Source of the DNA: a virus
Direction: 5' to 3' (one strand)
Length of the DNA: 19,979 nt
UHGV virus genome: UHGV-0128318
A model generated the notes under the pieces. The model was not told where the DNA came from. It saw nothing but the letters and a program-made list of their open reading frames with translations, and did not search any database. Shown here one piece after another: positions 3,107-19,979 of the stretch. Each line of letters opens with the position of its first letter. Position 1 is the stretch's first letter. The position numbers and the translations under genes were made by a program.

Positions 3107-3151
3107 GTTCTCACGCTCTTGAATGGTGGTAGCCCAAGCGGGGGTGAGAAT
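3107..3151 (-). promoter_or_regulatory. Leader target elements upstream of the icd-like RBS: a second copy of the 10-mer gttctcacgc (3107-3116, identical to the RNA loop at 3277-3286) and its partial complement gtgagaa (3144-3150)
   Basis: Exact 10-nt direct repeat 170 bp apart plus a 7-nt inverted copy. This allows either an intramolecular hairpin in the mRNA leader or pairing of the upstream small-RNA loop with the leader. Confidence 0.45.
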
Positions 3152-3234
3152 ACCGGCAAACGAAGAAACCGGCCTGACCGAAGTCAGCCCCGCCTGAGCC
3201 ACCATAAATCGGATATGCGCAGGTATATACACAC

Positions 3235-3256
3235 AAAAAAACACGCTGGCGCGTGT
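3235..3256 (-). terminator. Intrinsic terminator on the minus strand (acacgc-gcca-gcgtgt followed by T7), inside the leader of the antirepressor operon
   Basis: 6-bp GC-rich stem, 4-nt loop, immediate run of 7 T on the minus strand. Confidence 0.6.
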
Positions 3257-3309
3257 TGTGCGCTTCGTTTATCCGGGTTCTCACGCCCGGCTGCGGAATT
3301 TGCCGCAGC
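3235..3309 (-). ncRNA. Candidate c4/CA-type small regulatory RNA of about 75 nt: two stem-loops (3291-3308 ctgcgg/ccgcag; 3273-3290 ccggg/cccgg with loop cgugagaa) followed by the terminator
   Basis: Promoter-like TTGACG-18-TAAAGT on the minus strand (3345-3316) placed about 7 nt before the first stem-loop; loop sequence repeated and complemented in the downstream leader. Matches the known architecture of P1 c4 / P4 CI / N15 CA immunity RNAs. Confidence 0.45.
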
Positions 3310-3315
3310 GGAGTA

Positions 3316-3345
3316 ACTTTACCGTTAAAACGACGCACACGTCAA
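3316..3345 (-). promoter_or_regulatory. Putative sigma70 promoter of the anti-immunity operon (TTGACG-18-TAAAGT)
   Basis: Hexamer match and spacing read from the sequence; no other support. Confidence 0.3.
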
Positions 3346-4674: not shown

Positions 4675-7600
4675 TTACCCATAGAAAGCGCCCTGCTCTT
4701 CGTAGCTGCATGGGCTATTCCCGGTAATGTATTCACGTAACCGCCGCAGTTCATTGCTGGATAAGTGATCCATGAACTCTGTGAGGTACAGAGAGGCAAA
4801 CGTCATAGCTATGCTGGCTGATGACCATGATGACATAGTGGCCAGCTCCTCACCGGAAAGCGCACTCATCGCCCAGGACTCAGGTACAACCACTGGCAAC
4901 ACAGCCAAAGCCTCAGAAATTACTGAATGAGGGGCGTTTTGAACCTGCTCGTTTGTGGATCGCGTTTTATCATCCATATATATATTGAGATCCAAATCGC
5001 GATCCATTTCGATGGCGGTCTTCTCGGCTTTACGCGTTTTCAGGGTTAGGCCATCTTTCTGACGCTGAGCAAGAATATCCAGCATAAATGCCGCTGATTC
5101 AGGCTCAACAAAACGCAAGGTTGGACGCTTATCGCCGTCTCTGCCGCGACGTTTACCTGTTTTAAGGCCAAGAGAGTCGCAAATGTTTTTAAACAACGCT
5201 TCCGGCACTTTAGGCTTCCCTTTTGGCGTCATAAAACCACCAATGTGCAGAACGTTATTCAACAGGTCACGGCGTTCGGCTGTCATGAGGTTATCTCGAG
5301 CGAATTTGAGACGCTCCTGAGTCGCCTCGCCGGTCATAGTCTCAGGGTTGATACCGCAGTCGATAAAGTACTGCCGGAGAGTTGCTGATTTAAGCGCATA
5401 GAAACCGCGCGCCCCGACTTCAACAGTAGGAGTAGCTTTTACCTTGTGATCGATTATTCCAGGGAATTTAGTTTTAAAGACATCATCAGCCTGCTCGCGA
5501 GTCATCGCGGTCACTACAAAATATTGCCACTGTCCCGCCTGACGGTATGCGTAGGTAAAATTGATGGCTGCTTCTTCCCGGTCGTAACGACGAGCTGTTA
5601 CCTCATCTAAAAGCATTGTTTCATAGCGGCGAACTTTGTCTCGAGCACCATCGAAATAGAATTTCAGCGTGCCTTCTTCAACCGGTAGTTTCAGTTCGTT
5701 TTCAATATCCCAGCGGACAAGTTTTGCCTGTTCTTCAAGCGTCAGCGCGCGTTTTTTTAGCAGTTCTTCACGCTCTGATTCTTGTGGAGTTTCTGTATTG
5801 AGGTGCAGATCCAGTGTCTGTTCCCACACAATATCCCGCGCTTCTTTACGCAGATCTTTACCGATATCATTCGCAGCATAATCGGTGGCCAGCGGTGATA
5901 CCTTATAACCGTCGCTGTGCATGATGCAGATCATGTTGCTGGCGTAGTCGTTACGCGCAGTCGCTTCAATTGCGGCTGCTTTAATTTTCATCCTGGTAAA
6001 GTCGGTATTGGCCACCCCCATTGATATACGGTCGCCATCGAAAACGACATCCGTAAGTTCACCGTTCATACCTGCGGTAGCAAGCAATGCCTGGGCGAAT
6101 GCTCGTTCTATTTTTTGCGGGTCAGTTTCACGTTTTGCACGAGCTTTATCAAAGCCGATAATAAATTCTTTTGCTGTACGGTCGCGGCGTAGCATTTGCA
6201 CTGCGTCGCTGGGTACAACTTCACCACAGAACATGCCGAAATGACGGTCAAAATGTTTTTGCTCAATCGACACGCCGGATGAAATAGACGGGCTATAAAT
6301 CAGGCCGTCGTATTTTTTGACCATCTTTTTCGGTTGATTGGTAAATGCTTCAACTTCTGGCTCTGGTTTGTTTTTCTGGTTTACACACAGAAATTTCTTA
6401 CCAGGAAAATGCATTCTCAGGGTGGCTGTCACATCTTCTGCAAAGGTGGAGCTGTCGGTGGCCAACATGATTTTTTCGCCATCCGATACAGCTTTCACCA
6501 CCTCGGTCATGATGCGATCTTTTTCTGTATAAAAAACCCGGATTGGCTCACCTGTTTCGCGGTTGCGAACATCAACAGGTAATTCAATTACGTGGATCTG
6601 CAGCCATGCCGGTAAACCTAGTTCTTCACGGCGTTTCATAGCCAGTTCAGCCAGGTCAACCAGTAGATCGTTCGCATCAGCATCCACCATGATTGGGTGT
6701 TGTTCCGTTCTGGCCAGCGCGTCAATTAGCGTATTGAATACAGCAACCGGGTTTTCCATAGCCCGACCGGAAAGAACGGCACGTAGCCCTTGCGTGGCCT
6801 CGTCAAAGCCAAAATAGTCGTGCTGGCGCATCAACGGTTGCCAGCAGTTTTTAACAATCGAGTTTATGCAGATGGTCAGTTTACTGGCGTATGGAGCCAT
6901 TTCCTGATAGCCAGGGTCCTGATAGTGCAGGATATCGGCTTTTACACCTTTTCCTTCTGTCATCATTTCCCACAGGCCACCAATAAGGGAGACACGGTGA
7001 GCAACAGAGATACCACGTTCTGAGCTATGCATTAACGGTCGTAACAATCCAGTAGATTTGCCGGAACCCATACCAGCACGGACGATGACTATCCCCTGTA
7101 GTGATTGCACGTACTTCAGGACATCATCGGTCATTACCGAAGTTTCAAAACGCTTATAGGTGATATGTTGAGGGCGTTTATTGGGATCAGTTATGCGTTC
7201 GCTGAAAGAGCGCGGAGCCTGGGCAATACGGCACTTTTTATTCAGGCGACGGGCAATGTGGTCTTTTACCGTAGCGCGATAGATATTTTCCAGTCCCATT
7301 TCACGCAGAACGATGCAGAACATGTTAAATAAATCTGACGGACTGTTAGGAACCGGGCAGGTTAGCATGCCAATATCCACCGCTCTCAGCAGCTCTTTGG
7401 CAAAAGTACGACGGTTATCCCGCTTAATTGTCTTCAGGCGGTTGAGCGTCAGAGATAGCAAATCAGTGCCAGTTTTCAGGCGGTTTGCAGTTGCAAACAG
7501 TTGACGTGCTGTTTCACGAAGTCCACGTAGTTTGTGCAGGTCGTTGAAGTCACTGCACTCCATTTGCGGATCGTCTTCAAAAGTTGGATAGACGCAGCGG

Positions 7601-8664
7601 ACATCGTTGAATTTCGATAAGATTTCATAGCCAGTCCGCAGGCCGGTATTCCCTTTTCCTTCTGTAGCTGATTTCCGGTCATTATCCAGTGCGCAGGTGA
7701 TTTTTGCCGCCGGGTACATGTTTACCAGTTGTTCCACAACATGAACCATGTTGTTAGCGGATACAGCGACAACCACAGCGTCAAAGCGTTTATCTTTTTT
7801 CGTGGCAAGCCAGATGGATGCACCAGTAGCAAAACCTTCTGTAACAGCGATGTTTTGCGCCCCTTTCAGCTCACCGATAACAAAGCAGGCACCGACGAAA
7901 TCGCCGCTGGTTACGGCGCTGGTCTGGTATTTTCCACCTTGTTTGTCGATTCGCTGCCAACCAACAATACGACCATCGTAACGACCGTCCAGGTGAGCCA
8001 GAGGGATAGCCATATACGTGGTTGGCCCCCTGCTCCATTTTGCGCTGTCGTGACTGGTCACGCGACGCACATCACACGAATTAAAAACGTCACGAATACC
8101 TTTTTTAATCGCATATGGCCATGAGCCGTCTTCTGCAGGAGCATGTTCCCAAGCACTGTGGAATGCCAGCCATCCCAGCAAACGTTCATGGTCCATTTGG
8201 TTGTTTTTCAGGTCATTAATTCGTTTTTGTTCTTCACGGCGACGACGTGCTTCACGTTCTATTCTTGCCCGTTCTTCTTCCGGTTGTGCGACCACGGTCG
8301 CATTATTCCGTTGTTGCTCACGGCGATATTCAGAAAACAGGAAGGAGAAACCGCTCCATGAGCCAGCATCGCTGCCTTTATGGACGAAGTTAATGAACGG
8401 GTAATCAATCCCTTTGCTGTGTTCCAGTCGGGAGTAAATTTCTACGCGTCCTTTGAGGCTCTTCTCGAGAGCTTCTGGAGATGTTTTATTGTATGAAGAG
8501 TAACGCTCAACACCCCCGCGAGGGTTGAGTTGGATGTTGTCGGAACAGGCAGACCAGTTGATACCAGCCATCTGTGCCAGCTCGGTTAGTTCATCCCGTG
8601 CTGCTTCAATTAGCGAGAACGGATCGCTGCCAAAGCGATCCGCATAGAAATCGTTTAATGTCAT
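4675..8664 (-). CDS. repA: RepA-type multidomain replication protein (primase-helicase), 1329 aa, with a Walker A motif (GMGSGKST)
   Basis: Size and position (next to cB, transcribed away from cro) match N15 repA, which is about 1.3 kaa; NTP-binding motif seen. All + strand track ORFs between 5616 and 8404 are antisense artefacts of this gene. Confidence 0.9.
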   Translation of the reverse strand: MTLNDFYADRFGSDPFSLIEAARDELTELAQMAGINWSACSDNIQLNPRGGVERYSSYNKTSPEALEKSLKGRVEIYSRLEHSKGIDYPFINFVHKGSDAGSWSGFSFLFSEYRREQQRNNATVVAQPEEERARIEREARRRREEQKRINDLKNNQMDHERLLGWLAFHSAWEHAPAEDGSWPYAIKKGIRDVFNSCDVRRVTSHDSAKWSRGPTTYMAIPLAHLDGRYDGRIVGWQRIDKQGGKYQTSAVTSGDFVGACFVIGELKGAQNIAVTEGFATGASIWLATKKDKRFDAVVVAVSANNMVHVVEQLVNMYPAAKITCALDNDRKSATEGKGNTGLRTGYEILSKFNDVRCVYPTFEDDPQMECSDFNDLHKLRGLRETARQLFATANRLKTGTDLLSLTLNRLKTIKRDNRRTFAKELLRAVDIGMLTCPVPNSPSDLFNMFCIVLREMGLENIYRATVKDHIARRLNKKCRIAQAPRSFSERITDPNKRPQHITYKRFETSVMTDDVLKYVQSLQGIVIVRAGMGSGKSTGLLRPLMHSSERGISVAHRVSLIGGLWEMMTEGKGVKADILHYQDPGYQEMAPYASKLTICINSIVKNCWQPLMRQHDYFGFDEATQGLRAVLSGRAMENPVAVFNTLIDALARTEQHPIMVDADANDLLVDLAELAMKRREELGLPAWLQIHVIELPVDVRNRETGEPIRVFYTEKDRIMTEVVKAVSDGEKIMLATDSSTFAEDVTATLRMHFPGKKFLCVNQKNKPEPEVEAFTNQPKKMVKKYDGLIYSPSISSGVSIEQKHFDRHFGMFCGEVVPSDAVQMLRRDRTAKEFIIGFDKARAKRETDPQKIERAFAQALLATAGMNGELTDVVFDGDRISMGVANTDFTRMKIKAAAIEATARNDYASNMICIMHSDGYKVSPLATDYAANDIGKDLRKEARDIVWEQTLDLHLNTETPQESEREELLKKRALTLEEQAKLVRWDIENELKLPVEEGTLKFYFDGARDKVRRYETMLLDEVTARRYDREEAAINFTYAYRQAGQWQYFVVTAMTREQADDVFKTKFPGIIDHKVKATPTVEVGARGFYALKSATLRQYFIDCGINPETMTGEATQERLKFARDNLMTAERRDLLNNVLHIGGFMTPKGKPKVPEALFKNICDSLGLKTGKRRGRDGDKRPTLRFVEPESAAFMLDILAQRQKDGLTLKTRKAEKTAIEMDRDLDLNIYMDDKTRSTNEQVQNAPHSVISEALAVLPVVVPESWAMSALSGEELATMSSWSSASIAMTFASLYLTEFMDHLSSNELRRLREYITGNSPCSYEEQGAFYG
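4950..5010. other. Candidate internal replication origin element: AT-rich stretch (catatatatatt) with three GATC sites within about 50 bp, inside the 3' end of repA
   Basis: Seen in sequence; N15 ori is known to lie within the 3' part of repA. Confidence 0.3.
8049..8062. repeat. Family-2 palindrome cgtgactggtcacg inside the repA 5' coding region
   Basis: Perfect 6-bp arms around a 2-bp centre; same core as 3366-3385 and 14369-14382. Confidence 0.6.
8287..8302. repeat. SopB-type centromere-like palindrome tgcgacc-ac-ggtcgca (family 1), inside repA coding sequence
   Basis: 7-bp perfect arms; core GACCACGGTC resembles the F sopC binding site TGGGACCACGGTCCCA; four more copies in the window. 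Confidence 0.5.
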
Positions 8665-10519: not shown

Positions 10520-10772
10520 ACAAGTTATGTTCAGGAAACCGTCGAAGCCAGAATTAAGGTATTCGGGGGTAAGAAATGAATATGTTATCTGGTGTCCAAC
10601 TTGTGGTTATAGGACACGACCAGATAGTAATAAGCAGTCTGTAATTGCCGATTGGTATTTATCAAATCAGCCAGGTAATAAGCATATAGAAAATCTTTGG
10701 ATTAAGCGTTACTTGGAAATCAGAGAGGGTGCGACCGTGGTCGCACAAGAAAATGAAAATAACGCCATTTAA
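10470..10772 (+). CDS. Zinc-ribbon small protein, possibly Lar-family (restriction alleviation-like): PFCLC ... WCPTCGY ... SVIADWY
   Basis: GTG at 10470 with GGAG at 7-nt spacing, overlapping the Q-like 3' end by 50 nt; an alternative ATG at 10527 loses the first Cys pair. Confidence 0.35.
   Translation: MKSSNAIGQEVPFCLCKQVMFRKPSKPELRYSGVRNEYVIWCPTCGYRTRPDSNKQSVIADWYLSNQPGNKHIENLWIKRYLEIREGATVVAQENENNAI
10729..10746. repeat. SopB-type centromere-like palindrome gtgcgacc-gt-ggtcgcac (family 1), within coding sequence
   Basis: 8-bp perfect arms. Confidence 0.5.
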
Positions 10773-16193: not shown

Positions 16194-16213
16194 TGTGCGA
16201 CCACGGTCGCACA
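16194..16213. repeat. SopB-type centromere-like palindrome tgtgcgacc-ac-ggtcgcaca (family 1), intergenic
   Basis: 9-bp perfect arms, 5 nt after the stop of the preceding gene. Confidence 0.5.
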
Positions 16214-17901: not shown

Positions 17902-18398
17902 TGCAGTCATCATTACGCAAAGCTGTTACAGCTGCTATTGGTGGCGGGGCTATTGCCATAGCGTCTATGCTCATCACTGGCCCAAGTGGTAACGATGGTC
18001 TGGAAGGTGTCAGTTACATACCATACAAAGATATTGTTGGCGTATGGACTGTATGTTACGGACACACTGGAAAAGACATCATGCTAGGTAAAACGTATAC
18101 CGAAGCAGAATGCAAAGCTCTCCTGAATAAAGACCTTGCCACTGTCGCCAGACAAATTAACCCGTACATCAAAGTCGATATACCGGAAACAACGCGCGGC
18201 GCTCTTTACTCGTTCGTTTACAACGTGGGCGCTGGTAATTTCAGAACATCGACGCTTCTTCGCAAAATAAACCAGGGCGATATCAAAGGCGCATGTGATC
18301 AGCTACGTCGCTGGATATCTGCTGGCGGTAAGCAATGGAAAGGCCTGATGACTCGTCGTGAGATTGAGCGTGAAGTCTGTTTGTGGGGTCAACAATGA
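17898..18398 (+). CDS. SAR endolysin (phage lysozyme, T4-lysozyme/GH24-like, with N-terminal signal-anchor-release domain)
   Basis: Gly/Ala-rich N-terminal TM ([20 protein letters not shown]) and catalytic region [14 protein letters not shown]; ATGA overlap with the holin. Confidence 0.85.
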
Positions 18399-18862
18399 GC
18401 AGAGTAACCGCAATTATCTCCGCACTGGTTATCTGCATCATCGTCTGCCTGTCGTGGGCTGTTAATCATTACCGTGATAACGCCATCGCCTACAAAGAAC
18501 AGCGTGATAAAAAAGTCAGTGAGCTGAAGCAGGCGACCGCCACCATCGCTGACATGCAGCAGCGTCAGCGTGATGTTGCTGCGCTCGATGCAAAATACAC
18601 GAAGGAGTTGGCTGATGCGAAAGCTGAAAATGATGCTCTTCGGCGCAAGCTTGATAATGGTGGTCGGGTGCTCGTCAAAGGAAAATGCTCTGTGCCATCC
18701 TCAGCCGAAACCTCCAGCGCCTCCGGCATGGGCAATGATGCCACCGTCGAACTCTCTCCAGTTGCTGGACGAAACGTTCTCGGTATCCGGGACGGAATCA
18801 TCAGAGACCAGACAGCACTGAGAACGCTTCAGGAATACATCAAGACGCAATGCCCGAATTAA
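18395..18862 (+). CDS. Rz-like i-spanin (N-terminal TM, coiled-coil periplasmic domain)
   Basis: ATG overlaps the endolysin stop (ATGA); TM segment [14 protein letters not shown]; contains the embedded Rz1 frame. Confidence 0.75.
18615..18821 (+). CDS. Rz1-like o-spanin lipoprotein embedded in the +1 frame of Rz (lipobox ...IMVVGC, Pro-rich mature part)
   Basis: ATG at 18615 with GAAGGAG at 7 nt; signal peptide with lipobox Cys; [10 protein letters not shown] typical of Rz1. Confidence 0.7.
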
Positions 18863-18903
18863 TCCCTCTGTATCAAAAACGAACTCAATTTGTTGGATAG
18901 TGA

Positions 18904-19215
18904 ATGAAAATTTATATTGCCGGGCCAATGACTGGATATGAGAACTTTAATCGTGACGCCTTTAATAAAGAGGCAGATCGTTTGTCACGACATGGTCACT
19001 CTGTCTTGAATCCAGCCACTTTGCCTAATGGTCTGACACAACGTGAATACATGGATATTTGCTTTGCAATGCTTCGTTGTGCTGATGCTATTTTGATGCT
19101 TCCTGGCTGGAAAGCGTCTGCTGGAGCAACTGCTGAGTATCATTACGCATACAAGATGGAGATGCCGGTATTCACTACGCTGAATTACCCGCCAGCTTGT
19201 TCCTCTGTAGCATAA
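18904..19215 (+). CDS. DUF4406-like protein (nucleoside 2-deoxyribosyltransferase-like fold), 103 aa
   Basis: MKIYIAGPMTG ... NPA ... CDAILMLPGWKASAGA pattern recalled for this family. Confidence 0.55.
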   Translation: MKIYIAGPMTGYENFNRDAFNKEADRLSRHGHSVLNPATLPNGLTQREYMDICFAMLRCADAILMLPGWKASAGATAEYHYAYKMEMPVFTTLNYPPACSSVA

Positions 19216-19233
19216 AAATCTCTTTGTTTCTCG

Positions 19234-19253
19234 TGTGCGACCGTGGTCGCACA
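19234..19253. repeat. SopB-type centromere-like palindrome tgtgcgacc-gt-ggtcgcaca (family 1)
   Basis: 9-bp perfect arms. Confidence 0.5.
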
Positions 19254-19453
19254 TTAAATACCGCGCTGCATCGTCGCCGTATTTCCGCATTAACCATGAC
19301 CGTAGCCCGACGGGGAACTCCTCTGCGCGAGTGTGCGGAAATAATCAAAAACGATGCACACCGGGTTTTTACCGCGCTAATGATTCGCGGGTTTGTCCCT
19401 CATGCTCGCCAGTCCTGTGCGAGGGTGGAAGAAACAGGGCATGTATTCAGGAG

Positions 19454-19473
19454 CGTGCGACCGTGGTCGCACG
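19454..19473. repeat. SopB-type centromere-like palindrome cgtgcgacc-gt-ggtcgcacg (family 1)
   Basis: 9-bp perfect arms; 200 bp downstream of the previous copy. Confidence 0.5.
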
Positions 19474-19495
19474 GTATCTTTGTCAGGAGGTTTTG

Positions 19496-19810
19496 ATGAA
19501 AGAGTTGCAAAAAATTAATTCAATAATGGAAAGATTAAGTGCTCTTGAGCGTAAGCTGGACGATTGTGGAAAGCTGTGTGTTGAAAAGCAAAATGAGCTT
19601 TACCGGGAATTTTTTACAATCGTAAGTGAGCTGATGCCAATTGTTAATAACTGCCTGATGACATCCAGATTTTTTAATGTCGATGCTACTACATCCAGAA
19701 AATTTTCTGTGAAAATTCAAGAAAGAGTTTCTGGTAGTGTGACAAGAGAGATGGCTGAACAGTTGGTGGCAATGAGCAATAAAACAAAAAGAAAAAAGCA
19801 TTGCTTGTAA
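19496..19810 (+). CDS. AT-rich moron-like gene, 104 aa, unknown function (N-terminal coiled-coil, basic C-terminus)
   Basis: ATG with AGGAGG at 6 nt; by eye about 35% GC against a roughly 50% GC background; located between the lysis cassette and cos. Confidence 0.5.
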   Translation: MKELQKINSIMERLSALERKLDDCGKLCVEKQNELYREFFTIVSELMPIVNNCLMTSRFFNVDATTSRKFSVKIQERVSGSVTREMAEQLVAMSNKTKRKKHCL

Positions 19811-19843
19811 CAGCAAATCAGCTTTCAGGGCGCGTTGACTTTC

Positions 19844-19979
19844 AGGTGTTGTGATATGCAGATGATAATTATTATCATTTGCGGGTCCTTTCCAGTGATC
19901 CGACAGGTTACGGGGCGTCAGGCGCGCGGGTTTTCGCTATTTATGAAAATTTTCCGGTTTAAGGCGTTTCCGTTCTTCT
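19844..19979 (+). other. Lambda-like cos region: cosQ-like segment, cosN-equivalent 12-mer at 19913-19924 (gggcgtcaggcg), and the start of cosB; the window ends inside cosB
   Basis: Near-identity to the phage lambda genome ends as I recall them: ...gatgataattattatcatttgcgggtcctttcc.gtgatccgacaggttacg upstream and cgcgggttttcgctatttatgaaaattttccggtttaaggcgtttccgttcttct downstream; the 12-mer differs from lambda GGGCGGCGACCT at about 5 positions. Confidence 0.8.

Follow-up and report, generated by a model that had tools for sequence, protein, structure and literature searches.

Phage N15 reportedly has dispersed centromere sites, IR1-IR4, said to have been described by Ravin and Lane in 1999 and by Grigoriev and Lobocka in 2001, and morons near the right end of lambdoid phages, e.g. 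bor and lom, are likewise said to have been described by Juhala et al. in 2000 (cited in PMC4104026). The core sequences of N15 IR1 and IR4 are given in Table 4 of PMC7205306, and N15 SopB binds each of IR1-4 (PMC7205306). In plasmid F the centromere, sopC, consists of tandem 43-bp repeats, each with a 16-bp inverted repeat that is bound by SopB (PMC7205306, PMC3177203), and the F SopB does not use the N15 sites (PMC7205306).

We analyzed the right end of a window (the whole stretch of DNA under study, 19,979 nucleotides of the virus genome UHGV-0128318), which spans the arm from telN to cos in an N15-like (Ravinvirus) linear plasmid-prophage. It encodes a TelN that is 76% identical to that of N15, as well as a RepA-sized ORF. 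The sopA and sopB genes of this phage would lie outside the telN-to-cos window; we infer their presence from a near-identical relative, PhiR46_1, which has ParA, a ParB 74% identical to N15 SopB, and the same five IR sites that are detailed below. A scan of the whole window at the Rfam gathering threshold also placed C4, isrK and c4-a1b1 at 3122-3322. We lean towards reading the region at the right end as a recombination mosaic of three separate things, namely centromere sites, a lambdoid element and a truncated cargo gene. The mosaic is mostly ordinary and of known kinds, and the RNA-like element is the sole part of it that may be new.

N15-type palindromes near cos

A sequence-only reading of this DNA had pointed to two centromere-like palindromes, at 19234 and 19454. 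A search of the whole window with the core GTGCGACCGTGGTCGCAC, permitting up to 3 mismatches, returned 10 strand-matches corresponding to 5 sites, whereas 0.00 are expected by chance (200 dinucleotide shuffles). These sites, and the gene at the left border of the module, are:

8286-8303, no strand: IR1-equivalent site, inside the repA 5' region; its flank matches the N15 IR1 oligonucleotide
10729-10746, no strand: IR2-equivalent site; its flank aaatcagagagg is the counterpart of aaatcaaagagg at N15 position 35930
16195-16212, no strand: IR3-equivalent site, lying after the gp51 homologue and ahead of the methylase and lysis genes
18904-19215, + strand: DUF4406 (nucleoside 2-deoxyribosyltransferase-like) gene, left border of the module; Pfam PF14359, E=3.7e-34, PHROG 355
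19234-19253, no strand: IR-a, N15-type SopB-site palindrome; exact match to the core GTGCGACCGTGGTCGCAC at 19235-19252
19454-19473, no strand: IR-b, second N15-type SopB-site palindrome; exact match to the core GTGCGACCGTGGTCGCAC at 19455-19472

In both IR-a and IR-b the 18-bp core is extended by one complementary base per side to give a 20-bp palindrome, and the two are separated by 220 bp from center to center. Read on the other strand, their core is GTGCGACCACGGTCGCAC, the core of N15 IR1/IR4, so that the 18 bp, GTGCGACC-NN-GGTCGCAC, are identical to those bound by N15 SopB (PMC7205306), and the centromere-like character that had been claimed for the palindromes is borne out. The placement of the sites is also the same as in N15, i.e. 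at the 5' end of repA, after Q, before the late/lysis genes and near cos. The three single sites are positional homologues of N15 IR1-IR3, with similar flanks and gene context. IR-a is the counterpart of IR4 by position, as it lies just 3' of the DUF4406 gene, the homologue of gene 57 in N15 (77% identical at the nucleotide level to that region of N15), and has a left flank like that of N15 IR4. Judging from sequence and position, the IR-a/IR-b pair is a doubled IR4 near cos, in which IR-a appears native and IR-b appears to have been brought in with the neighboring element. The long form of that element runs directly into IR-b at its 3' end, and other lambdoid contigs show the same element-IR junction, with the IR ~55 bp ahead of cosQ.

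We predict that in the UHGV-0128318 phage these palindromes are SopB-binding centromere sites of the N15 Sop type. A SopB (ParB-family) dimer would bind each 18-bp inverted repeat, and the SopB complexes at the pair and at the three dispersed sites would be pulled apart by SopA, such that daughter cells each keep the low-copy linear prophage. The arrangement differs from that of N15 in having five sites rather than four, with the cos-proximal site doubled, and N15 is without the lambdoid element that the pair brackets here. The F system belongs to the same partition family, and there too a ParB-type protein reads a short inverted repeat. However, its sites have another sequence and form a tandem array at one locus beside sopAB, whereas in the window the sites stand singly, dispersed along ~11 kb of the arm.

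The palindromes could alternatively be mainly RNA hairpins (intrinsic terminators, attenuators or mRNA-stabilizing stem-loops) rather than protein sites. The N15 record indeed labels IR4 as a putative rho-independent terminator, IR-b is terminator-like in our consensus scan, with a hairpin dG of about -14 kcal/mol, and phage 2B8, which is not of the N15 type given its classification in Alegriavirus, keeps the palindrome via a change on both arms (GTGCAACC..GGTTGCAC). Yet five identical 18-mers stand where N15 has its experimentally used SopB sites, including one within the coding part of repA, and the asymmetric center occurs in opposite orientations in copies elsewhere in the genome. Moreover, IR-a has no T-tract, and a terminator ahead of the terminase genes would oppose late expression. 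We consider this explanation highly improbable.

A lambdoid element between the palindromes

The 200 bp between the palindromes (19254-19453) have 54.0% GC, which is in the top 3.5% of 202-bp windows, in agreement with the GC-rich segment proposed earlier. Most of this segment is occupied by a single unit:

19263-19445, + strand: conserved non-coding lambdoid element; core at 19263-19369, long form extending to about 19454

Of 149 HSPs, 148 have 19263 as the precise start of homology, in 7 distinct upstream contexts, and what precedes this 5' edge is wholly different from phage to phage. The 3' boundary is variable, and in some phages the homology ends inside the core, at the equivalent of 19331 or 19349; the full fold described below is therefore not indispensable. 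Lambdoid phages of Escherichia have the element between their lysis module and their terminase module, among them lambda itself (46869-46974), 434, and the K-12 prophage DLP12 (about 579010-579116, between borD and ybcV), and it is also carried by Stx Sepvirinae with a different terminase. It is present in 3181 of 5426 complete E. coli genomes (~59%), and 4890 of its 4932 places are chromosomal, mostly without palindromes, i.e. in integrated prophages. We found no annotation at these places, and a literature search on the borD/ybcV place retrieved Bordetella papers only. A species-level genome scan gave nine matches, all to Escherichia or to short contaminant-looking contigs. The copies are thus from one genus, 75-100% identical, and this confinement leaves no deep phylogenetic depth for covariation. 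A covariance model (R1) recovered no further copies of the element in the window and none in N15.

The view that the segment between the palindromes holds no credible ORF was upheld. Codon 3-periodicity of substitutions is absent among 64 unique homologues, and 1-nt indels are common; compared with the window, 53 of 63 homologues have a +1 insertion at 19321. Mechanically, the ORFs 19197..19496 and 19235..19810 do exist, but their frames are not conserved and they show the same lack of 3-periodicity and frequent 1-nt indels, on which grounds we rejected them. A 66-aa ORF at 19296-19493 has no Pfam or PHROG match.

The spread of the element bears on the suggestion, made on the letters of this DNA, that the segment is a partition-complex nucleation zone. 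Under this proposal the paired SopB sites act as a unit and build an enlarged SopB complex, resulting in stronger partition and/or silencing of the cargo and cos-proximal DNA. The spacer, however, is a general lambdoid element that nearly always occurs without IRs; IR4 is single in N15 itself; and some relatives carry just one of the two, IR-a in L088 and IR-b in L149, L129 and L043-like. Further, the full IR-element-IR-gene module is also seen in integrated chromosomal prophages with no other IR within 12 kb; therefore neither IR is needed there, and the doubling may lack function. The proposal does draw on the presence of two perfect sites at a spacing of 220 bp (~21 helical turns), on the SopB foci of N15 on IR arrays, with silencing of nearby genes (PMC7205306), and on the retention of the pair in PhiR46_1, YDC107_1 and ~17 E. 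coli plasmids. On this evidence we regard a partition-specific zone as unlikely, and as regards partition the ~190 bp between the palindromes would be a passenger.

A DNA-level role, at least in one lineage, is suggested by the lambda-type variants, which have a consensus sigma-70 promoter (TGGACA-N15-TACAAT) on the opposite strand. The HK629 record has a promoter annotated in the element on the minus strand. We rejected the HK629-type promoter as a shared feature of the element because the window variant reads GGTCAT/TACGGC.

A candidate structured RNA in the late transcript

The + strand of the element is that of the lysis and terminase genes, and for this late-transcript strand we propose an eight-helix fold with 48 pairs, in which 98.9% of cells are kept across 30 unique variants. 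Its principal parts are:

19268-19357, + strand: long 5' stem-loop domain, from RNAalifold and pair counts
19405-19438, + strand: candidate H-type pseudoknot, proposed after viewing the alignment and then counted

The 5' domain is closed by helix 1 (19268-19274 with 19351-19357; 100% paired), followed by helix 2 (19280-19291 with 19330-19343; 99.4% paired), and also contains the inner helices. The candidate pseudoknot consists of S1 (19405-19409 with 19419-19423) and S2 (19414-19418 with 19434-19438), whose helices are 98.0-98.5% paired. Variation that preserves pairing was seen in column 7/95 (C-G/U-G/U-A) and column 22/78 (C-G<->U-A), while S1 column 145/163 is split into GU:15, CG:14 and UG:1, and S2 column 156/176 into GC:13, UA:13, GU:2 and other:2. 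In all, five pairs in four separate helices are compensated, probably representing ~5-7 independent events as the sequences are closely related. Changes on both sides of a pair were counted in 36 cells versus 15.9+-2.2 in shuffles that ignore relatedness (0/500), and the covariation score was 0.126 versus 0.083, with slid controls at <=0.046. Given the frequency of G-U pairs the fold is strand-specific, with 98.9% of cells pairing on the + strand compared to 83.8% on the - strand. Conservation is higher in paired than in unpaired columns (0.949 versus 0.889; p=0.004), and variation is concentrated in the loops. The MFE z-scores of the window sequence are unremarkable at -0.74 (+) and -1.65 (-).

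We tentatively suggest that the element, starting at 19263 and spanning ~180 nt, is an undescribed structured RNA within the late transcript, acting in cis either on the processing or stability of the mRNA or on expression of the terminase. It would be read within the Q-dependent late transcript and there fold into the long 5' stem-loop, two hairpins and possibly a pseudoknot. Our best guess would be a cis effect on the late mRNA, for instance through processing, stability, or insulation of the lysis and packaging cistrons from each other.

The same observations may also be read as a neutral mosaic scar, i.e. a functionless element spread by homologous recombination, whose apparent structure stems from GC-richness and shared ancestry. 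Its restriction to one genus and the 75-100% identity are typical of shared lambdoid modules, and the variable 3' boundary with truncation of the core in some phages, the ordinary MFE z-score and the few independent compensatory events all fit such an origin. It accounts less well for a 5' boundary that is invariant in 7 unrelated contexts, including a different terminase type, for the concentration of variation in loops and the strand-specificity of the fold, and for compensated pairs in four separate helices. We treat this explanation as possible, if rather doubtful.

The earlier reading had also raised the possibility of a non-coding RNA locus. This has real though limited backing in the conserved, strand-specific fold; an independent trans-acting sRNA gene with its own promoter and terminator, comparable to the prophage anti-sRNAs, is in our estimate very unlikely. 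The element resembles prophage sRNAs (AgvB/AsxR, Pas, STnc100, IsrK/C4) in being a discrete, conserved, structured, phage-borne non-coding unit at a mosaic junction, and lambdoid prophages do encode sRNAs at conserved positions (PMC4104026). However, known sRNAs of this kind are downstream of pR' or in the immunity region, the anti-sRNAs lying downstream of pR' and not at the lysis-terminase junction (PMC4104026), and the positions described in the literature on AgvB/AsxR and the Pas sRNAs differ from that of the element. Our consensus scan detected no + strand sigma-70-like site upstream of or inside the element, the upstream sequence differs completely between phages, and the end of the core is without a T-tract terminator. 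No Rfam 15 family, AgvB, AsxR, STnc100, IsrK and C4 included, reached the gathering score in 18800-19979, and at E<=5 the only matches in this interval were chance ones, to models of eukaryotic lncRNAs and miRNAs. With its ~180 nt and no evident promoter or terminator, the element is likelier to belong to the late mRNA as a cis element than to be an sRNA gene.

A truncated cargo gene at a mosaic breakpoint

The gene between IR-b and cos had been taken for an AT-rich moron. The relevant features are:

19485-19490 (RBS AGGAGG) and 19496-19810 (104-aa ORF), + strand: short allele of phrog_2571
19847-19848, no strand: mosaic breakpoint; phrog_2571 of relatives on the left, lambda/434-like cos-proximal sequence on the right
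19883-19924, + strand: cos, with the cosQ-like GGGTCCT at 19883-19889 and the probable cosN 12-nt cohesive end GGGCGTCAGGCG at 19913-19924

The low GC and strong RBS of the gene were confirmed: it has 35.6% GC as opposed to a window mean of 45.7% (sd 4.5%), placing it in the lowest 2% of 315-bp windows, and AGGAGG sits 5 nt before the ATG at 19496. Its position next to cos likewise agrees with our alignments, the cos positions being assigned purely by homology, both to cosQ as annotated in phage 434 and to the ends of lambda, 434, 2B8 and N15.

The 104-aa ORF matches positions 1-102 of the 291 of phrog_2571 (E=1.9e-61), whereas a full-length relative matches positions 1-291. By this alignment the ORF is the N-terminal third of a 286-aa phage ORFan and not a complete gene. 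It is short because of a 1-nt deletion and the breakpoint at 19847/19848. The deletion, which causes a frameshift, falls in the A6-G run at 19792-19798; relatives read GG at this place (alignment of YDC107_1, PhiR46_1 and L006). A chromosomal prophage has the identical 104-aa protein in its annotation (WP_001555424.1), encoded with only 2 synonymous differences, and the exact short-allele sequence is present on 242 contigs; we therefore rejected a sequencing error as the cause of the frameshift. To the left of the breakpoint the window shares 99.9% identity with phrog_2571 as found in relatives, and beyond it the rest of phrog_2571, a downstream 149-aa gene and a second copy of the element are missing. 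In full-length relatives the phrog_2571 gene is followed by that 149-aa protein (phrog_3054), a putative membrane protein by its sequence, and then by the second element copy. The junction at 19847/19848 also occurs in three chromosomal prophages.

Among relatives the locus is found in a full form (L002, L129, L130), a 198-aa form (L001, L006), the short form (the window and L149) and an empty form (L088), the element of the last being an E1/E2 chimera. Recombination between the two element copies, or inside the cassette, could have generated these full, shortened and empty forms. Presence or absence in related phages had been put forward as a check, and the gene proved variable: it is absent from the close relative L088 and from N15, which has the unrelated gp59 where the phrog_2571 remnant sits here. 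Neither outcome that had been named as refuting, a GC no different from the backbone or universal conservation in N15-like phages with a known function, was observed. The phrog_2571 family is found only in Escherichia/Shigella, and our homologue search yielded 15 clusters, all from Escherichia. Neither Pfam nor PADLOC has matches for the 104-aa, 286-aa, 198-aa or 149-aa proteins. The AlphaFold2 model of the 286-aa protein has a pLDDT of 59.9 and a pTM of 0.38, and a Foldseek search of the PDB with it gave nothing at E<=0.001. A lectin-like beta-sandwich was considered for this protein and discarded, the Foldseek matches being weak and not credible.

The designation as a moron is hence partly apt. 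Like the lambdoid morons, this is an AT-rich extra gene with a strong RBS, present or absent among relatives, in a variable lysis-to-cos slot; in lambda, 434 and DLP12 this slot, directly to the left of the element, is taken by bor. The copy in the window differs from them in being a truncated allele of the 286-aa gene, on the late-transcript strand, and our consensus scan found neither an own promoter (+ strand sigma-70-like, 18800-19496) nor a terminator after 19810, the sole hairpin with a T-tract being IR-b, upstream of the gene.

Implications

The cargo gene adds little, being a truncated, Escherichia-only ORFan. The doubled cos-proximal centromere site represents a small variation on the dispersed-centromere design of N15. 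IRs carried as passengers into integrated prophages would constitute orphan SopB targets, which could matter in cells with a co-resident N15-like plasmid-prophage. The more useful by-product of this analysis is the element, an unannotated, sharp-edged non-coding unit in ~59% of complete E. coli genomes, in lambda and in K-12. If the structured-RNA reading is true, its constant 5' edge marks a functional unit that is shuffled intact by recombination. The element is directly testable in lambda and K-12 and, if functional, it would be a missing feature of the lambda late operon, which is among the best-studied transcription units.

Genomic setting of the region

The window represents the right arm of a linear, N15-like plasmid-prophage (Ravinvirus), and its closest records are the Escherichia phages YDC107_1 (98%) and PhiR46_1 (99.9% over 18800-19847). 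It ends in a lambda-like cos sequence, and its other landmarks are as follows:

26-1732, TelN homologue with 76% identity to the N15 protelomerase TelN
4675-8664, RepA-sized ORF of 1329 aa
17629-18862, holin, lysozyme and Rz-like genes

Rfam matches above the gathering score cluster on the minus strand at 3122-3322, namely C4 antisense RNA (3122-3209, 82 bits), isrK (3236-3309, 68 bits) and the c4 a1/b1 target (3270-3322); we take this to resemble the antisense-RNA-controlled antirepressor (secondary immunity) regions of the P1/P7/N15 type. A +1-frame plus-strand ORF (18570-18821) with a lipobox-like LIMVVGC motif, nested in the Rz-like gene (18383-18862), fits the usual nested Rz/Rz1 (i-spanin/o-spanin) arrangement. 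Alignment with lambda places a putative 12-nt cohesive end at 19913-19924; it reads GGGCGTCAGGCG, differing at 5 positions from GGGCGGCGACCT of lambda, while the related contigs L041, L088 and L149 have GGGCGGAAGGCG. Given these differences, cos overhangs vary inside otherwise very similar cos regions.

Palindromes of the N15 centromere kind

The sequence features listed in the sequence-only reading, i.e. palindromes, GC contrasts, a ribosome-binding site and ORFs running through the palindromes, are all present in the window. GTGCGACCGTGGTCGCAC occurs at 19235-19252 and 19455-19472, and one further complementary base on each side extends these copies to 20-bp palindromes at 19234-19253 (IR-a) and 19454-19473 (IR-b). 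Three additional copies are located at 8286, 10729 and 16195; the count expected from 200 shuffles is 0.00. The four natural centromere sites of N15, IR1-IR4, are bound by N15 SopB (PMC7205306, text) and share the core GTGCGACC-NN-GGTCGCAC, with AC as the centre in IR1 and IR4 (PMC7205306, Table 4). The window 18-mer is exactly this core, its GT centre being the reverse complement of AC. Of the N15 sites, IR1 is inside gene 37, two others follow gene 40 (35930) and gene 51 (41124), and one, near cos, falls between genes 58 and 59 (45561). The gene contexts match and the flanks are similar at 8286, 10729 and 16195, which are therefore the equivalents of IR1-3, and the pair 19235/19455 sits at the IR4 position. 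PhiR46_1 has all five sites, along with ParA and a ParB with 74% identity to N15 SopB; sopAB lie outside the window. Thus, the description of the palindromes as centromere-like holds: they belong to a known kind of site, and their sequence suggests binding of an N15-type SopB and activity in partition. N15 IR1-4 are the closest known sites, from which the window pair differs by the doubling of the cos-proximal IR4. The further proposal that the intervening 200 bp itself acts as a partition-complex nucleation zone was not supported.

A widespread non-coding element between the palindromes

The GC content of the 200 bp between the palindromes is 54%, which ranks in the top 3.5% of windows. A search with 18800-19979 as the query recovered, for the stretch from 19263 to ~19445, a segment with 82-96% identity in hundreds of lambdoid phages outside the N15-like group. 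This element was detected in 3181 of 5426 complete E. coli assemblies, at 4932 places (4890 chromosomal and 42 on plasmids); PGAP provides no annotation at these copies, and no Rfam family matches the element. Representative copies are:

lambda, 46869-46974, between bor and lambdap78
434, between bor and a DUF3950 gene
K-12 DLP12, ~579010-579116, between borD and ybcV

Copies in Stx Sepvirinae have Rz, Rha or bor on one side and, on the other, a small terminase subunit of another type, which argues that the element marks the lysis-to-packaging junction rather than cos. Of 149 HSPs, 148 share a 5' edge at precisely 19263, across seven unrelated upstream contexts, and the 3' limit differs among HSPs (19331, 19349, 19368, 19399, 19433-19449 or 19471-19473). 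A species-level scan confined it to Escherichia, save for contaminant-like contigs. These short contigs (L140, L141 and L144), from assemblies labelled Candidatus Nanosynbacter (MAG), Pseudomonas yangonensis and Thiomicrorhabdus heinhorstiae, contain the Escherichia lambdoid element at ~90% identity, in L140 together with cos sequence, and most likely represent lambda-like DNA contamination.

Substitutions fall evenly on first, second and third codon positions, and indels of 1 nt are frequent (e.g. 53 of 63 variants have +1 at 19321), indicating that the element is non-coding. The reading frames of the two long ORFs through the palindromes are likewise not conserved, in agreement with the earlier view that no credible ORF lies here. 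The lambda/HK629 variant (lambda 46869-46974, equal to L126 570-675) has TGGACA-N15-TACAAT on its minus strand, labelled in the HK629 record (L131 914-940, minus strand) as a promoter directed towards bor; the window variant is devoid of these hexamers.

A candidate RNA structure

Folding of the window sequence alone was uninformative (z -0.74 and -1.65). RNAalifold, applied to 33 unique core variants, recovered a long stem-loop, and one candidate pseudoknot, with stems S1 and S2, was proposed after inspection of the alignment:

19268-19274 with 19351-19357, helix 1 (RNAalifold)
19280-19291 with 19330-19343, helix 2 (RNAalifold)
19405-19409 with 19419-19423, stem S1 of the candidate pseudoknot (alignment inspection)
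19414-19418 with 19434-19438, stem S2 of the candidate pseudoknot (alignment inspection)

An eight-helix structure that takes in the pseudoknot, counted on 30 unique long variants (19263-19445), comprises 48 pairs; 98.9% of its cells are paired, and five pairs show changes on both sides. Among these variants, which are close relatives from one genus, and against a shuffle control that ignores relatedness, 36 cells were changed on both sides versus 15.9+-2.2 in shuffles (0/500), and the covariation score was 0.126 versus 0.083 shuffled (0/500), with slid controls at <=0.046. The independent compensatory events are few, probably 5-7. As many pairs are G-U, the fold is strand-biased, with 98.9% standard pairs on the plus strand versus 83.8% on the minus strand. 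Paired columns are also more conserved than unpaired ones (0.949 versus 0.889, p=0.004), and the plus strand is that of the lysis and terminase genes, i.e. of the late transcript. The suggestion of a non-coding RNA locus is plausible for a cis element within the late mRNA, and we consider a functional sense-strand RNA a serious possibility, if somewhat short of an even chance. Points that weaken the RNA reading are that the core ends early in some phages, at 19331 or 19349, and that lambda-type variants have the consensus promoter on the opposite strand. The main alternative is that the element is a neutral recombination module. Known prophage sRNAs sit at a different position and show no family match to the element.

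The 104-aa gene and its full-length cassette

The ORF at 19496-19810 has 35.6% GC where the mean is 45.7% (lowest 2% of windows), and AGGAGG lies 5 nt before its ATG; the earlier description of an AT-rich acquired gene holds. Elsewhere in the window only 1-750, the 5' part of telN, matches this AT content (315-bp windows with <=35.6% GC). The gene resembles lambdoid morons in composition and in its presence/absence pattern, but a consensus scan found no promoter or terminator of its own around it. On the 291-position profile phrog_2571 its product covers 1-102 (E=1.9e-61), and the 286-aa protein of PhiR46_1 covers the entire profile. Up to 19847 the window is 99.9% identical to YDC107_1, PhiR46_1 and the contig L006, minus one G after an A6 run (19792-19798), resulting in a frameshift to the stop at 19808-19810; at 19847/19848 the homology changes to lambda/434-like cos-proximal sequence. 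Without the frameshift, the ORF from 19496 would still stop at ~117 aa. The form in YDC107_1 and L006 has 198 aa. An identical protein (WP_001555424.1, two synonymous differences only) from a chromosomal prophage with other neighbours, and 242 contigs with the exact short-allele sequence, rule out sequencing error as the source of the short allele. The family is known only from Escherichia/Shigella and has no Pfam or PADLOC match; an AlphaFold2 prediction was of low quality (pLDDT 59.9), and no credible match came from fold comparison. The short form retains only a predicted N-terminal helical hairpin. N15 lacks the element and has the unrelated gp59 in place of this gene.

Relatives with the full-length gene, two of them integrated chromosomal prophages, show the order DUF4406, IR-a, element copy 1, IR-b, 286-aa gene, 149-aa protein, element copy 2 and cos. 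The 149-aa partner, lost from the window (phrog_3054; L002 4681-5130 in PhiR46_1, with equivalents in L129 and L130), appears from its sequence to be a membrane protein and has no PADLOC match; the two genes form an AT-rich cassette between direct repeats of the element. Contig L088 has IR-a, an element chimeric for copies 1 and 2, and then cos with the cargo absent, which is the product expected of recombination between the copies. The module DUF4406-IR-element-IR-phrog_2571-phrog_3054 is present in the E. coli MS1657 chromosome (L130 5689-8263) and likewise in L129 and L149, its IR-element-IR part being 100% identical. The hosts of this module are integrated lambdoid prophages with nin genes and Q, in which the IRs would be orphan N15-type SopB sites.

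Origin of the doubled site

In other lambdoid contigs, IR-b and its left flank gtattcaggagc directly adjoin the element's long form, and the IR there lies ~55 bp before cosQ with no further IR for several kb; the left flank of IR-a resembles that of N15 IR4. In the simplest history, an exchange in the shared cos region would have attached an N15-type IR4 to a lambdoid element, and a subsequent exchange would have set this element-IR unit next to the resident IR4. Only ~36 of ~4900 E. coli element copies have an IR, suggesting that it is a rare addition. In phage 2B8 (Alegriavirus, not N15-type) both arms are altered (GTGCAACC..GGTTGCAC), and the palindrome after the element (L005 1692-1709), GTGCAACCGTGGTTGCAC, preserves the symmetry. 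This single case is a hint that selection may maintain the palindrome even where no Sop system is present, for a role as a hairpin or some other binding site. Contig L117 has a half-changed palindrome, GTGCAACCGTGGTCGCAC.

Taken together, the region is a recombination mosaic built from parts of known kinds, and the sequence-only reading was borne out in part. The sole lead worth pursuing is the unannotated, very widespread RNA-like element, which could be easily tested in lambda or K-12.
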